This document shows, piece by piece, positions 1,992 to 38,427 of a stretch of DNA of 64,000 nt. The notes beneath the pieces were generated by a model. The model was not told the DNA's origin, did not search any database, and saw only the letters and a list, made by a program, of their open reading frames with translations. The first letter of the stretch is position 1, and the number at the start of each line of letters is the position of its first letter. The stretch covers positions 512,001 through 576,000 of the forward strand of contig JAXDQS010000003.1 of NCBI GenBank assembly GCA_034667725.1. Direction: 5' to 3'. This stretch comes from Thermoplasmata archaeon. Lineage in GTDB: Archaea; Thermoplasmatota; E2; JACPAO01; JAHFTW01. The position numbers were made by a program, and so were the translations under genes.

Positions 1992-3560
1992 ATGACCTGG
2001 GATGCCGTGGCCGACGTCCTCGCCGGCCGCAAGACGGGGCAGACGGTGCGCCTGCGCGGCTGGGTGCACCGCTCCCGCTCCGCCGGCAAGATGGCCTTCA
2101 TCGTGCTGCGGGACGGCTCCGGCGGCGTCGTGCAGTGCACCGTCAAGGGCGGTGCGGTGGAAGACAAGGACCTGGAGGCGGCGAAGTCCGCCGGCATCGA
2201 GTCCAGCGTGCAGCTGCTGGAAGGGACCGTGGTGGCCGACGAGCGCGCCCCCGGCGGCTTCGAGGTCAAGGCGACCCGGTTCGAGCTGCACCGCAAGGCC
2301 GAGGCGTTCCCGCTGCGCGGCGAGCAGGGCACCGAGTTCGAGCTGGACAACCGCCACCTCTGGCTCCGGAGCACCGAGCTTTCTGCGATCCTGCGGGTCA
2401 AGGGCCGGCTCTACAAGGCCATCCGCGACTTCTACGCGGCGGAGGGGTTCGTGGAAGTGGATCCAAGTGTGATCACCACCAACGCCTGCGAGGGCGGCTC
2501 CACCCTGTTCACCTTCGACTACTTCGGCCAGACGGCCTACCTGTCCCAGTCGGCGCAGATGTACCTGGAGGGCTGCATCTTCGGCATCCCCAAGGTGTTC
2601 AGCATCACGCCCAGTTTCCGCGCCGAGAAAAGCCGGACCAACAAGCACCTCACCGAGTTCCATCATCTGGAAGCGGAGTACGCCTGGTGGGACGCCGAGG
2701 ACAACCGCGTGTTCCAGGAGCGCATGGTGACGCATTTGGCGCACACGGTGGCGAAGGAGTGCGAGGCCGACCTTCGGTTGCTGGGGCAGGACCCCGCCAA
2801 GCTGCTGCGGATCGGGACGTATGAGCCGGGCAAGTCCCTGGCCGACGAGCCGGGCAAGCGGTTCCCGCGCGTGGACTACGCGGCGGCGGTCGAGGAGCTG
2901 CAACGGCAAGGGTTCCACCTTCCTTATGGCGAGGATTTCGGCGTCCCGCACGAGAAGGCCCTGACGGAAGGGAGGGTGAACCCGATGTTCATCTGCGATT
3001 GGCCCGCGCGGATCAAGGCGTTCTACATGGCCGAGAAGCAGGGCACCGACCGCGTGCTGTGCAGCGACATGCTCGGCCCCGATGGGTATGGCGAGATCAT
3101 TGGCGGGAGCCAGAGGAGCGAGGACATCGAGAGCATGAAGCGCCGCCTGTCCGCGCAACTCCTGGCCGAAGCCGCCGAGAAGGCCGAGGAGCAGCACAAG
3201 AAGCTCGACTTCGGCATCCTCGACGGCACCCGCACGGTCGGCACGCCCGCGGAAGCGGAGGCGTTCTTCCAGGCCGTGTGCGAGCTCACCGGCACCAAGT
3301 TCACCGACGTCACGGTGGAGGCCATGGCCGGGTCCCGCGACCGCTCCACCCCGCGCGCGGCCCAGGACGCCTGGACCGACGCCTACTGGAAGGCCAGCCT
3401 GGCCCCCTACCAGTGGTACTTCGACCTCCGCCGCTACGGCTCCGTCCCCCACTCCGGCTTCGGCCTCGGCATCGAGCGCCTCCTTCGCTGGTTCACCGGC
3501 CAGGAGCACATCCGCGACATGCTGCCGTATCCGCGGACGCCGTCGAGGGCGTACCCATGA
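1992..3560 (+). CDS. asnS: Asparagine--tRNA ligase with large C-terminal insertion
   Basis: OB fold (LRGWVH, FIVLRDG), YLSQSAQMY, FRAEKSRT..HLTEF, GEIIGGSQR, YGSVPHSGFGLGIER. Confidence 0.95.
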   Translation: MTWDAVADVLAGRKTGQTVRLRGWVHRSRSAGKMAFIVLRDGSGGVVQCTVKGGAVEDKDLEAAKSAGIESSVQLLEGTVVADERAPGGFEVKATRFELHRKAEAFPLRGEQGTEFELDNRHLWLRSTELSAILRVKGRLYKAIRDFYAAEGFVEVDPSVITTNACEGGSTLFTFDYFGQTAYLSQSAQMYLEGCIFGIPKVFSITPSFRAEKSRTNKHLTEFHHLEAEYAWWDAEDNRVFQERMVTHLAHTVAKECEADLRLLGQDPAKLLRIGTYEPGKSLADEPGKRFPRVDYAAAVEELQRQGFHLPYGEDFGVPHEKALTEGRVNPMFICDWPARIKAFYMAEKQGTDRVLCSDMLGPDGYGEIIGGSQRSEDIESMKRRLSAQLLAEAAEKAEEQHKKLDFGILDGTRTVGTPAEAEAFFQAVCELTGTKFTDVTVEAMAGSRDRSTPRAAQDAWTDAYWKASLAPYQWYFDLRRYGSVPHSGFGLGIERLLRWFTGQEHIRDMLPYPRTPSRAYP

Positions 3561-3691
3561 GCGTGGCTTTGGTCGGGGGGCCGAGCGAAGCGAGCGCCCC
3601 CCTTGACGCGGGGGAGTCCCTCGGGGGCGGAGCCCCCAGGCGGGGCATGCTGCCCTACCCGCGCACGCCGTCGAGGGCCTACCCTTGAGCG
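3518..3691 (+). repeat. Direct repeat of the asnS 3' end (3518-3563 and 3646-3691) flanking a hairpin insert
   Basis: Both copies encode MLPYPRTPSRAYP*. There are 5 differences, all at third codon positions. Confidence 0.93.
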
Positions 3692-3700
3692 CTCCGGACA

Positions 3701-3761
3701 ACCACGGACCGCACGGATTCCACGGACCTAGGGTCTCCGTGCGATCCGTGAAATCCGTGGT
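3701..3761. repeat. 9-bp-periodic CACGGA x3 / TCCGTG x3 palindromic element, copy 1
   Basis: accacggaccgcacggattccacgga-cctagggtc-tccgtgcgatccgtgaaatccgtggt. Confidence 0.92.
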
Positions 3762-3781
3762 CCCAGGCGGAGGCGCGTAGC

Positions 3782-4168
3782 GTGCCGAAGCGCCGCGAGA
3801 TGCAGAAGGCCCGCGCCGGCATGTCGGTCAGCGAGGAGACCGTCGCCCTCTACGGCGCCGCCCGCGCCTTCCTCATCGGCGAATGGATCGGGGCCCTGCT
3901 GATGCTCTCCTCGTTCACGCTGCTCTACCTGCTCTACGCCGCCACCGCCTGGTCGCCGAAAAGCATCCTCATCGCCACCTTGGGCCTCATGGGCGTCGGC
4001 ACCGTCGCCTACCTGCGCAGCCGGGCCTACTACCAGCGTATCGCGTTCCCCTACGCCCCCCGCGCCCACCTCGGCGCCCTGCTGGTGGCCGGCTCGGCCG
4101 TCGTGTTCTGGCTGCTGTTCGCGCTGCTGGAAATCCTGGTGGGGCTCGGCGTCGAGGTCGGCGGTTAG
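3782..4168 (+). CDS. Small membrane protein, unknown function
   Basis: 128 aa, about 3 TM segments, host-like codon usage. Confidence 0.75.
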   Translation: MPKRREMQKARAGMSVSEETVALYGAARAFLIGEWIGALLMLSSFTLLYLLYAATAWSPKSILIATLGLMGVGTVAYLRSRAYYQRIAFPYAPRAHLGALLVAGSAVVFWLLFALLEILVGLGVEVGG

Positions 4169-4187
4169 GGTTTTGCCCTAACCCTGA

Positions 4188-5108
4188 GTGCCCGCCCCCG
4201 TGCCCGCCACGGCCTCCCCTCAAGTCGTGACCTCGACCGACCTCCCCTTCAAGGTGTTCCGCAAGGGCAAGGTGCGCGACGTCTACGACCTCGGCGACCG
4301 CCTCCTCATGGTCGCGACCGACCGCATCAGCGCCTTCGACGTGGTGCTGGAGCCCGGCATCCCCCTCAAGGGCGCCTGCCTGACGCAGATCAGCAACTTC
4401 TGGTTCCACCAACTGCGCGACGAGGTCCCGAACCACCTCGTGGAGACCGACGTCGCCCGCTTCCCCAAGGAACTGCAGCCCTACGCCGCGATGCTCAAGG
4501 GCCGCGCCGTCCTGGTCGAGAAGCTCAAGCCGCTGCCGGTCGAGTGCATCGCCCGCGGCCACATCTCGGGCTCCGGCTGGAAGGAGTACAAGAAGTCCGG
4601 GACCGTGTGCGGCATCAAGCTCCCCCCCGGCCTCCAGGAGTCGCAACGCCTCCCCGAGACCATCTTCACGCCCAGCACCAAGGCGGACGAGGGCCACGAC
4701 GAGAACATCAGCTTCGCGGAGTGCGAGAAGATCGTCGGCAAGCAGACGGCCGCCTGGCTGCGCGACACCACCATCCGCATCTACGAGACGGCCCGCGCCC
4801 ACGCCGCCGAGCGCGGCATCATCATCGCCGACACCAAGTTCGAGTTCGGCACCCGCGCCGACGGCACCATCGTGCTCATGGACGAGATCCTCACCCCCGA
4901 CTCCAGCCGCTTCTGGCCGATGGAGTCGTTCAAGCCTGGCGGCAGCCCGCCCAGCTTCGACAAGCAGTTCCTGCGCGACTGGCTCGAGACCCAGCCCTGG
5001 GACAAGACGCCCCCCGGCCCCCGCCTGCCCCCGCAGGTCGTGGAGGGCACCGCCCAGCGCTACTACGAGGCGTACGAGAAGCTCACGGGCAAGCCGTTCC
5101 GGGTCTAG
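4188..5108 (+). CDS. purC: SAICAR synthetase
   Basis: GKVRDVY, ATDRISAFD, ADTKFEFG, DEILTPDSSRFW, SFDKQFLRDWL. Confidence 0.97.
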   Translation: MPAPVPATASPQVVTSTDLPFKVFRKGKVRDVYDLGDRLLMVATDRISAFDVVLEPGIPLKGACLTQISNFWFHQLRDEVPNHLVETDVARFPKELQPYAAMLKGRAVLVEKLKPLPVECIARGHISGSGWKEYKKSGTVCGIKLPPGLQESQRLPETIFTPSTKADEGHDENISFAECEKIVGKQTAAWLRDTTIRIYETARAHAAERGIIIADTKFEFGTRADGTIVLMDEILTPDSSRFWPMESFKPGGSPPSFDKQFLRDWLETQPWDKTPPGPRLPPQVVEGTAQRYYEAYEKLTGKPFRV

Positions 5109-5161
5109 GGTTCAAGCCGCTCTTCAACGTGCTTATAACGGCCCCAAGAATCGAAACCACG

Positions 5162-5509
5162 ATGCGCATCCCGGTCGCCGACCGCCTCCTCGCGGTCGTG
5201 GGCTACCTTCCGTTCCTGTTCTGGGTTCCGGTGGTCCTGAAGCGCGACTCGATGTTCTGCCAGTTCCACGGCCGGCAGGGCGGCGTCCTGTGGGCGCTCT
5301 GGTTCGTCCCGGTCTTCCTCATGCTGGTGGTGTCGGTCTTCGTGCCCGACCTCACCGTCGGCTCGGTGGGCCCGTTCTACTTCGGCGCCATGATGGTACT
5401 CACGGGCATCTACCTCCTGCTGGTGCTGGTCGGCGTCCTCAAGGCGCTGCTGCGCGAGCGGTACAGGATGCCGATCGTGGCGGACCTTGCGTTGAAGATG
5501 GGCTTGTAG
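5162..5509 (+). CDS. DUF4870-like small membrane protein
   Basis: GYLPFLFWVP...FHGRQG, 3 TM segments, C-terminal YRMPIVADLA. Confidence 0.78.
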   Translation: MRIPVADRLLAVVGYLPFLFWVPVVLKRDSMFCQFHGRQGGVLWALWFVPVFLMLVVSVFVPDLTVGSVGPFYFGAMMVLTGIYLLLVLVGVLKALLRERYRMPIVADLALKMGL

Positions 5510-5741
5510 CCGCGTGATGGAGGGCCGCAGCGCAGCGGAGGCCCCCTCCCTAGCAACATGCCGGCTGGGTTCGCAGCCGACAGGATGCCCATCGTGGCGG
5601 ACCTTGCGTTGAAGATGGGCTTGTAGCCGCGTGATGGAGGGCCGCAGCGCAGCGGAGGCCCTCCCTGGCAACATGCCGGCTGGGTTCGCAGCCGACAGGA
5701 TGCCGATCGTGGCCGACCTCGCCCTGAAGATGGGCCTGGAG
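5463..5741 (+). repeat. Tandem array of the DUF4870-like gene 3' end plus hairpin insert (117-bp and 115-bp units and a third tail copy)
   Basis: Units start at 5463, 5580 and 5695. Each tail encodes RMPIVADLALKMGL. The 27-bp motif is at 5553-5579 and 5668-5694. Confidence 0.95.
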
Positions 5742-5797
5742 CCCGTCTGGCGGCTTTGGCAAACCTTATGGAAGCGCCCTAGGCATCGTCGTCGTCC

Positions 5798-6871
5798 ATG
5801 AAGGCCGTCCCCGTGCTGCTCCTGCTGCTGGCCACGACCTTCAGCGGCTGCCTCGGCGGCGAGGCGCGCACCGAGTGGGCCTTCGAGGTCACCCAGCTTG
5901 CCACCTTGGCCGACCAGGGCCGCAGCGGCAAGGGCGTGGTGGTGGCCATCCTCGACACCGGCATCAACCGCGAGCACGCCGCGCTGGAGCACCTGTTCGA
6001 CGGCGACCTGGAGAACGGCGAGGTCACCCACTTCCAGGACTTCCTGGGCACCGACCAAGGCCCCGCCAAAGCGTTCGACCGGGACGGCCACGGTTCGCAC
6101 GTGGCGGGCGTCCTGGCCGCCTCCGGCAGCACCCTCGGCGACAAGCTGGTCTACGGCGGCGTCGACCTGCGCGGCGGCGCCCCCGGCATCCGGCTCATGG
6201 TCGCGCGGGTGTGCGGCGAGGCCGCCTGCGACGGCAACGCCATCGTGCGCGCCGTCGACTGGGCCGCCGCCAACGGCGCCCAGGTCCTGTCGTTGAGCCT
6301 GGGCCGCCAGGCCAGCAGCTCGGTCCTGCCCGTCCAGCTCCAGGACGCGATGGAGTCCGCCATCAACCGCGCCATCGACCGCGGCATCGTGGTGGTCGCC
6401 TCCGCCGGCAACGACGGCCCGGGCAACACCGACGTCGGCAGCCCCGCCAGCATCCCGCGCGTCATCGCGGTCGGTGCCATCCAGGAGGACGGCAGCGTGT
6501 GGGCGTCCTCCAGCCGGGGCGACGACGCCACCAACCCGTGCCGCACCATCCCCGTCGTGGGATCGCAGGGCCGCTGCAAGCCCAACCAGAAGCCCGAGCT
6601 GGTCGCCCCCGGCGTCGACATCCTGTCGTCCTGGACCGACGACTCCTACGCCCGCGCCTCCGGCACCAGCCAGGCCACGCCGTTCGTGACCGCCGCCGTC
6701 GCCCTCATGCTGGAAGGCCACGGCCGCCTCACCGACGCCGACGACGTGGCCCGCGTCAAGAAGGTCCTCGTCGACACCGCCCAGCCGGTCGCCGACCAGG
6801 CCATGCCGCACGACGAAGGGGCCGGCTACGGCCTCGTGCAGGCGCTCGCGGCGGTCAACGCCTACCGTTAG
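5798..6871 (+). CDS. Subtilisin-like S8 serine protease, lipoprotein
   Basis: Lipobox-like FSGC. Catalytic triad motifs ILDTGI, HGSHVAG, GTSQATP, plus SAGN. Confidence 0.93.
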   Translation: MKAVPVLLLLLATTFSGCLGGEARTEWAFEVTQLATLADQGRSGKGVVVAILDTGINREHAALEHLFDGDLENGEVTHFQDFLGTDQGPAKAFDRDGHGSHVAGVLAASGSTLGDKLVYGGVDLRGGAPGIRLMVARVCGEAACDGNAIVRAVDWAAANGAQVLSLSLGRQASSSVLPVQLQDAMESAINRAIDRGIVVVASAGNDGPGNTDVGSPASIPRVIAVGAIQEDGSVWASSSRGDDATNPCRTIPVVGSQGRCKPNQKPELVAPGVDILSSWTDDSYARASGTSQATPFVTAAVALMLEGHGRLTDADDVARVKKVLVDTAQPVADQAMPHDEGAGYGLVQALAAVNAYR

Positions 6872-37950: not shown

Positions 37951-38427
37951 TCAACGCCCGGCTGCAAACCCAGCCGGCATGTTGCATCGGTGGGCTTCGT
38001 TGCGCTCGACCCACACAGATTCCACAGACCTGACTTTGGTTCTGGCGGGGCCTAGCCAAAAAATTCCACAGACGTCTGTGGGAATCTTCTGAATCTGTGC
38101 GCATCAGTGCTCGTCGCGGGCCCGACTGGACACAGATTCCACAGACCTCTGCGAGAATCTTCCGAGTCTGGGTAAATCAGTGCCCGTCGGGTGACCGACG
38201 CACCTTAGCCTGAGGAATCAACCCGGCTTGATCAACCCGTTCAGCACCGCGAACGCATCGAACAAGTCCCCCTCCGGCTGCAAACCCAGCCGGCATGTTG
38301 GCCTGCCTCGCAGCTCCGCGCTCGGCAGGCCGGACGCCTCGCTTCGCATCGGCGGCGCTGACGCGCACCTTCATCCCGGCTTGATCAACCCGTTCAGCAC
38401 CGCGAACGCATCGAACAAATCTTCCTC
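37941..38427 (-). repeat. Three copies of the ACT-gene 3' end separated by two hairpin inserts, each ending in the 27-bp motif
   Basis: Tail copies at 38371-38427, 38218-38274 and 37941-37955. Motif (reverse complement) at 38275-38300 and 37959-37985. CACAGA/TCTGTG repeats at 38012-38190. Confidence 0.92.

Follow-up and report, generated by a model that had tools for sequence, protein, structure and literature searches.

The asparagine--tRNA ligase gene asnS in a 64,000-nt stretch of a Thermoplasmata archaeon genome (hereafter, the window) carries its last codons twice, once in frame at the end of the gene and once behind an 82-bp hairpin cassette, and the two copies differ only at synonymous positions. 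The cassette belongs to a family that occupies the 3' ends of ~20 protein-coding genes and several tRNA genes in the same genome; what the present analysis adds is that asnS is a recurrent target. We suggest that the duplication is probably the footprint of a homing-like, homology-dependent event, in which an in-frame tail, its stop codon, and the cassette arrived from the asnS allele of another lineage and the resident tail was displaced. The source genome, which we refer to as G000, is a metagenome-assembled genome (MAG) of 2.32 Mb with a GC content of 71%, 26 contigs, and 90% completeness, and the window corresponds to C3:512001-576000; the genomes compared with it carry handles of the same type.

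The duplicated end of asnS and its cassette

Counted from its predicted start, asnS (window positions 1992-3560, plus strand) comprises 522 codons and a TGA stop codon. A first-pass annotation of the window had described the tail of this gene as duplicated, with all five differences between the copies synonymous, and both observations hold. The 42-nt copies lie at 3519-3560 (in frame) and 3647-3688 (distal), and no comparable tail match was obtained in 100 shuffles of the sequence. The full repeat extends from C3518 to G3563 and from C3646 to G3691, thus including three nucleotides past the stop codon, with a spacing of 128 nt. Specifically, the in-frame copy (3518-3563, plus strand) consists of the last 13 codons (MLPYPRTPSRAYP), TGA, and 3 nt, and forms the expressed end of the gene; the distal copy (3646-3691, plus strand) consists of the same 13 codons, TGA, and 3 nt and is contiguous with ancestral intergenic DNA. 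The codons that differ are CCG/CCC, TAT/TAC, CGG/CGC, GCG/GCC, and CCA/CCT (in-frame/distal), and the chance that five random substitutions are all synonymous is P = 0.0008. Compared with codon usage in the body of asnS, TAT and CCA in the in-frame tail are not significantly odd. We propose that the distal copy would be the displaced resident end of asnS, now presumably non-coding, and that the in-frame copy would be the incoming allele.

Between the copies lies a GC-rich hairpin cassette of 82 bp that contains no open reading frame (ORF) of its own (3564-3645, plus strand). It is composed of 11 nt of filler, hairpin 1, a middle segment, and the 3' module GGGGGCGGAGCCCCC (3623-3637), followed by 8 nt up to the distal copy. 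The first-pass annotation had correctly recognized two hairpins in this insert, i.e. the one formed by GGGGGGC (3575-3581) and GCCCCCC (3596-3602) and the one formed by GGGGGCGGAGCCCCC, and had missed that the insert is a member of a genome-wide family. The loop of hairpin 1 holds the mini-hairpin GCGAAGC (3585-3591); GCG(N)AGC, or d(GCGNAGC), is described as an unusually stable DNA mini-hairpin (PMC13037366). Parts of the segment 3561-3646 were found again elsewhere in G000, and locus L003 of this genome has the same layout, with the last codons of a gene, a hairpin element, and those codons again. A motif scan of the genome for the 3' hairpin GGGGCG(N)AGCCCC identified 39 sites, mostly in similar small elements, and direct repeats of 15-95 nt flank 16 of the elements found in this way. 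In an alignment of five sister copies (the asnS cassette and four others), the loop CGAGCG(N)AGCGAG and the 3' module GGGGCG(N)AGCCCC are conserved, and stem 1 is fully compensated (GGGGGGC/GCCCCCC, GGAGGGC/GCCCTCC, and GGCCCCC/GGGGGCC). A characteristic of the family is a 3' module 2-14 nt ahead of the distal tail copy, and the asnS cassette conforms to this arrangement with its 8 nt. Strict 3' modules number 10 in G000 and 0-5 in the relatives from the same genus. The sister cassettes at C9:695-843, C10:110795-110924, and C2:110073-110215 of G000 begin with the conserved sequence AGTGATGG; at C9:695, the in-frame gene stops on a cassette-side TGA after one extra codon and the displaced copy stops on its own TAG.

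An Rfam scan of positions 3000-6500 at E<=1 gave no match. The folding energy of the cassette, alone or together with both repeats, was no more stable than that of shuffled sequences (z -0.7 and -0.15, respectively), a comparison that is uninformative at 71% GC. At asnS, 15 of 19 nt in the cassette (3611-3629) pair with its own repeat (3666-3684), corresponding to approximately the 96th percentile of a cross-locus null. Family-wide, the complementarity of cassettes to their own repeats gave a weak signal (mean 6.9 versus 6.1 in the null, sd 1.4), with two of 21 loci above the 99th percentile; stems between the repeat ends and the cassette were no better than the null.

Cassettes at gene ends across genomes

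In a census of gene-end repeats, all close direct repeats in G000 were scanned and those pairs were kept in which the first copy ends an open frame with a high GC content at third codon positions, giving 28 candidates. Seven pairs were excluded because their spacers are not hairpin cassettes (wrong-strand internal protein repeats, the tails of two ribosomal stalk proteins, which are homologous, and another repeat family). The other 21 loci share the architecture of a gene tail, a cassette of 35-219 bp, and a second tail, with repeats of 21-95 nt and 85-100% identity that mostly terminate at the stop codon. The coding parts of these tail copies differ by 42 synonymous and six non-synonymous codons. 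With an expected synonymous fraction of 0.24, this ratio gives P = 5e-20 (3e-17 without asnS), and adding the seven excluded pairs changes it to 49:18, which is still far from neutral. Because a neutrally evolving distal copy would show about equal numbers of non-synonymous and synonymous differences, the 42:6 ratio, together with the frequent use of different stop codons, excludes neutral decay of a target-site duplication. Gene conversion between the copies was likewise considered and rejected by reasoning, as it would leave non-synonymous differences about as numerous as synonymous ones.

Beyond the ratio, the kind of differences is informative. C<->G exchanges make up 20 of the 52 differing bases (38%), and among orthologous asnS tails they account for 51% of the differences at synonymous third positions. 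Codons ending in A or T are not enriched in the in-frame copies (7 versus 11, counted by hand). At seven of the 21 loci the copies differ in the stop codon or slightly in the last residues, and the in-frame version always adjoins the cassette; stop codons also differ between the copies in the asnS pairs of genomes G012 and G037. Because the stop types differ and the in-frame type adjoins the cassette, tail, stop codon, and cassette form one unit. We conclude that the two tail copies show what is expected of functional alleles after divergence under selection, and not what is expected of a decaying spare copy.

The orientation of the cassettes is fixed and follows the host gene, and their 3' end is constant against the distal tail; the entry point varies between events and recurs at asnS. 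The repeats of the 21 loci have no core sequence in common. At six of the 21 loci, asnS included, an in-frame ATG stands at the start of the repeat or just after it (6 of 42 first codons versus 6 of 204 elsewhere; post hoc binomial P ~0.001). Such starts occur at C3:515518, C5:82630, C10:431973, C10:466811, C3:517463, and C4:18586 in G000 and at L104 in G006.

Tail duplications at asnS were found in six genomes from five genera. The repeats measure 46 nt in G000, 56 nt in G033, and 49 nt in G015, where the copies are identical, and in all three genomes they enclose a short hairpin cassette. G037 has a repeat of ~140 nt around a 150-nt hairpin cassette with the end GGGGCGAAGCCCC. In two further genomes the copies enclose longer DNA, i.e. 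375 bp of low-GC DNA with an 84-codon ORF in G012 (L018:3187-3559; repeat ~105 nt) and 830 bp with an HVO_A0114-family DNA-binding gene overlapping an 80-codon ORF in G023 (L029:497-1320; repeat 93 nt). The tail copies differ by 19 synonymous codons in G012 and 15 in G023, and all six asnS pairs together have 58 synonymous and 3-5 non-synonymous codon differences. In the distal copies, residues that are invariant in AsnS are replaced in G037 (Q>P and A>G) and in G012 (L>P), arguing that old distal copies decay. The repeat starts at the C|ATG boundary, 42 nt before the stop codon, in G000, G033, and G015, which represent three genera, and elsewhere in G037, G012, and G023. The asnS cassette of G000 is less similar to its asnS counterparts in G033 and G015 than to other cassettes in G000, and in G033 and G015 the gene's own sequence past the stop codon provides the left arm of hairpin 1.

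Several further arrangements were observed along the way. Within the window, an array form (5463-5743, plus strand) lies behind a small gene that ends with TAG at 5507-5509; its overlapping repeats of 82-85 nt are 91-99% identical, and each combines the gene's last codons with a portion of a hairpin cassette; one codon differs synonymously (CCG/CCC). On the minus strand, at 38218-38418, a 105-bp hairpin element of a different subfamily lies between gene-tail repeats of 48 nt that differ at one position, synonymously (GGA/GGT). A gene with the C-terminus ...ILDGVR(E/D)LM... has a cassette both in G000 (C2:110073) and in G005 (L099), and the repeat starts 18 nt further upstream in G005; we regard this gene end as having been hit independently in these two members of the genus. 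The 3' module is also shared by cassettes that lie between two copies of tRNA 3' halves or near-whole tRNAs (35-74 nt, 0-2 differences) at C3:223630-223850 in G000 and at L094, L095, and L105 (G006 and G004).

Origin of the in-frame gene end

The DNA around asnS bears on which of the two copies is resident. In the related genome G002, asnS has a single tail and no cassette, and its downstream DNA, a CACAGATT-type palindrome followed by a conserved small gene, matches the DNA after the distal copy in G000. Because G002 lacks the cassette and shares this downstream DNA, we conclude that the insertion is derived and that the distal copy adjoins ancestral DNA. In G000, the corresponding palindrome (3701-3761, no strand assigned) is an imperfect one of CACGGAT-type units in the native intergenic spacer, outside the cassette, with arms of 26 nt that are 81% complementary (inverted repeat I1); the similar CACAGATT palindrome of G002 is at the equivalent intergenic position. 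Repeats of the CACGGAT/CACAGATTCCACAGA type are thus found just past the distal asnS copy, and they also form long arrays elsewhere, e.g. at C3:18322-18758 and C10:124318-124546. The small gene itself (3782-4168, plus strand, taken from the ORF list) has no family match in NCBIfam or Pfam and is the direct 3' neighbour of asnS in relatives; in G013 and G014 its homologue starts directly after the asnS stop codon, and in G002, G006, and G009 a short distance beyond it. Because this gene is also next to asnS in the relatives, the spacer in front of it is native.

Comparison of the two copies with the asnS tails of relatives points in the same direction. The distal copy is closer to 19 of 27 distinct tails and the in-frame copy to four, a count that is supportive only, as the relatives are not independent and codon bias favours the distal copy; the nearest relative tail is 2 nt from the distal copy and 5 nt from the in-frame copy. 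Orthologues of asnS are present in 28 of 31 related genomes. The gene in G000 matches the NCBIfam profile NF003037 with 419 bits (cut-off 414) and TIGR00457 with 367 bits, and the closest AsnS in the protein collection has 72% identity across the entire protein. The NCBIfam asnS profile matches the G000 protein in two stretches, and compared with the profile the protein has an insertion of ~75 residues (residues ~393-470, window ~3168-3400), in a region whose length differs between relatives.

Our working hypothesis is that the unit 3518-3645, comprising tail, stop codon, and cassette, was copied from the asnS allele of another lineage, with entry at the C|ATG boundary. DNA synthesis would leave the resident gene at the entry point, copy the donor tail and the cassette, and resume on the resident gene at the same point, so that the resident tail (3646-3691) would not be replaced but pushed downstream, where it would persist as a young, untranslated relic. 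The trigger may be nuclease-initiated homing, i.e. donor-templated repair, or template switching induced by the hairpins. If the resident tail was displaced by a donor tail, then the five synonymous differences are allelic, between two functional asnS ends, and do not reflect selection on a peptide. That the tail came from a different allele was one of two options raised in the first-pass annotation, and it is supported by the 42:6 ratio, the stop-codon switches, the orthologue-like C<->G spectrum, and the polarity of 19 versus four among 27 tails. A more far-reaching possibility, which we find rather doubtful and offer tentatively, is that the cassettes are a self-propagating, protein-less homing system, in which bare GCG(N)AGC-based hairpins would get themselves, and a replacement gene end with them, copied into the final codons of essential genes belonging to other lineages. 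In such a system, the hairpins would recruit a host structure-specific nuclease or repair pathway or force template switching by the polymerase, and gene ends would be exchanged between archaeal lineages without an enzyme encoded by the element.

Several observations weigh against a homing-like arrival of the in-frame tail. The databases contain no near-identical strain or empty-site allele (the nearest AsnS being that with 72% identity), and two metagenome scans, one for either tail allele and one for a 3' module, a gap, and the asnS tail, found nothing. Because there is no such strain or allele, we infer the foreign origin of the in-frame copy rather than observe it. Codon bias could inflate the polarity count of 19:4. 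In G033, the 14 nt past the stop codon are identical between the copies despite five synonymous differences in the coding part, which is awkward for a donor that simply diverged, and in G015 the copies are identical over 49 nt. All genomes compared are MAGs. Moreover, no nuclease, integrase, transposase, or reverse transcriptase able to drive the event was found in G000, which is 90% complete: searches gave no match for the Y1 transposase, reverse transcriptase (RVT_1), or IS110, only sub-threshold zinc-ribbon hits for the TnpB type, and one weak, cut-off-level match to Phage_integrase on another contig. A cargo-bearing copy of the cassette was sought through the repeat partners of the 3' modules, within 40 kb upstream of each module, and was not found; all partners are 72-177 nt away.

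We considered several other explanations for the duplication. The main rival, which we regard as unlikely, is a Campbell-type integration, in which a small circle with the cassette and a foreign asnS tail fragment would have undergone a single crossover with the resident tail, mediated by host homologous recombination or by an att-type recombinase in trans, making both copies donor/recipient chimeras. A single crossover yields the arrangement tail, insert, and tail, with a repeat that is as long as the homology carried and ends where the homology ends, at the stop codon, and it accounts for the allelic, synonymous differences as well as for the unrelated 375-bp and 830-bp cargo in G012 and G023. 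However, the circles would measure only 72-245 bp, repeats of different loci have no common core, and the only integrase-family match is the weak one on another contig; in addition, the constant cassette 3' end against the distal copy and the fixed orientation are left unexplained, as is the recurrence of the C|ATG boundary in three genera, each with cassettes closer to those of its own genome. The 100% identity of some repeats, i.e. those of asnS in G015 (49 nt), of a tRNA end (44 nt), and of C2:79289 (33 nt), would fit a miniature transposon that generated a long target-site duplication, in which the differences then arose in place; elements of the IS1634/IS1549 type make long, variable target-site duplications. 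We disfavour this explanation and consider it improbable, because neutral decay is at odds with the observed 6:42 ratio of non-synonymous to synonymous differences, switches between stop codons and between the serine codons TCG and AGC require long divergence, and the differences are rich in C<->G, as between orthologues. Also, the cassette lacks terminal inverted repeats and does not match the transposase families searched (Y1, IS110, and TnpB-type).

Alternatively, the copies could have been identical at insertion and the in-frame copy silently recoded afterwards under positive selection, for example as an escape from re-cutting or from deletion between the repeats, with the distal copy remaining unchanged. 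The G033 pair, with its identical non-coding 14 nt next to a coding part that differs at five silent positions, and the unchanged, genus-typical appearance of the distal copy would agree with recoding. Fresh mutations are mostly G:C>A:T, and yet 38% of the differences are C<->G, A/T-ending codons are no commoner in in-frame copies, and stop-codon switches and multi-step codon switches are common, so that we give this scenario little credence. Because the genome is a MAG, it is conceivable that the assembly fused two strain variants of the asnS end into a single contig. Such an artefact is hardly credible, as copy-specific bases lie 8 nt (3556) and 10 nt (3655) from the cassette and are carried by any junction k-mer of at least 21, the copies share no identical run longer than 14 nt, which is too short for a false join, and the same architecture is present in MAGs from different studies and assemblers. 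Finally, we examined the second option of the first-pass annotation, namely that the distal copy is translated and under selection. The ORF on which this option was based exists: the ATG at 3557, in an ATGA overlap with the TGA of asnS, opens a frame (3557-3688, plus strand) that runs through the cassette into the distal copy and translates to the 43 residues quoted there. ATGA overlaps can support re-initiation, so that translation could be coupled to that of asnS and purifying selection would keep the differences synonymous; G033 likewise has an ATG-initiated frame into its distal copy, and the in-frame ATG at the repeat start of six of the 21 loci also speaks for translation. Nevertheless, this reading is very improbable. 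The synonymous pattern also occurs at loci whose distal copy lacks a usable start codon or follows an in-frame stop codon (e.g. C2:110073, C10:394945, and C10:330862), and the copy spacing is distributed evenly over the three frames (8, 7, and 6 loci). The ATGA-coupled ORF is peculiar to G000, since G015 has only a 13-codon frame and G033 a different ORF, whose cassette-encoded residues are unrelated to those in G000. In addition, the distal asnS copies of G037 and G012 carry the Q>P, A>G, and L>P replacements at invariant residues, and the cassette has no A/T-rich promoter-like stretch ahead of the distal ATG. We conclude that the 43-codon ORF is most likely incidental.

Significance and relation to known elements

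If the proposed displacement of the resident tail is correct, the last codons of essential archaeal genes such as asnS would be repeatedly overwritten by the alleles of other lineages, carried on ~80 bp of gene-less hairpin DNA. This would be a way of exchanging gene ends, and a type of selfish element, so far described only for nuclease-encoding elements of yeasts and fungal mitochondria. For annotation, it is relevant that spurious small ORFs arise at cassette loci, along with apparent "duplicated, selected" peptides. The cassettes also place strong hairpins inside operons, here between asnS and the conserved downstream gene, and the recurrent C|ATG junction in three genera offers a concrete site at which to seek the responsible activity.

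The closest described behaviour is that of the WHO elements at FBA1 in Torulaspora and Lachancea yeasts, which sit between a full-length host gene with a new 3' end and the displaced old 3' end (Coughlan et al. 2020, PMC7282813). The new gene end and the element constitute the mobile unit, and the fragments are of the 3' end only, many of them starting at about the same position (PMC7282813). Arrays arise through repeated hits, old ends decay, and past the junction the alleles show strong divergence; each WHO element spans kilobases and encodes an endonuclease of its own, and the elements have essentially one target gene and act in meiosis (PMC7282813). As with WHO, the displaced asnS fragments share a start in independent genomes, i.e. 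C|ATG in G000, G033, and G015. Unlike WHO, the asnS cassette has only 82 bp and no ORF, members of its family follow ~20 different genes and some tRNAs, no nuclease was detected, and the ends that are duplicated measure only 21-150 nt.

Prophages e14 and phage 21 in icd of E. coli encode an integrase, are many kilobases long, use one fixed att core each, and supply a substitute gene end. Our loci resemble them in that the expressed end would come from the element, in the mostly silent differences from the displaced native end, and in the direct repeats at the junctions; they differ in that the 82-bp insert contains no integrase and no core is shared between loci. Like miniature inverted-repeat transposable elements (MITEs) and REP-like repeats, the cassettes are small, non-coding, multicopy, and hairpin-forming. 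Unlike in MITEs, the two termini of the cassette, TGGCTTTGG... and ...CAGGCGGGG, do not form inverted repeats, there is no short fixed target duplication, and the flanking repeats of 21-95 nt are variable and gene-end-specific, with allele-like, non-neutral differences. A diversity-generating retroelement does not match either, as the differences at asnS (G/C, T/C, G/C, G/C, and A/T) are not confined to adenine and the genome has no RVT_1 match. Rep-Arvir (PMC13107129), which we considered with regard to hairpin origins, has no bearing on the cassettes. Taken together, the WHO elements, the icd prophages, and MITEs each share features with the cassettes, and none of them fits fully.

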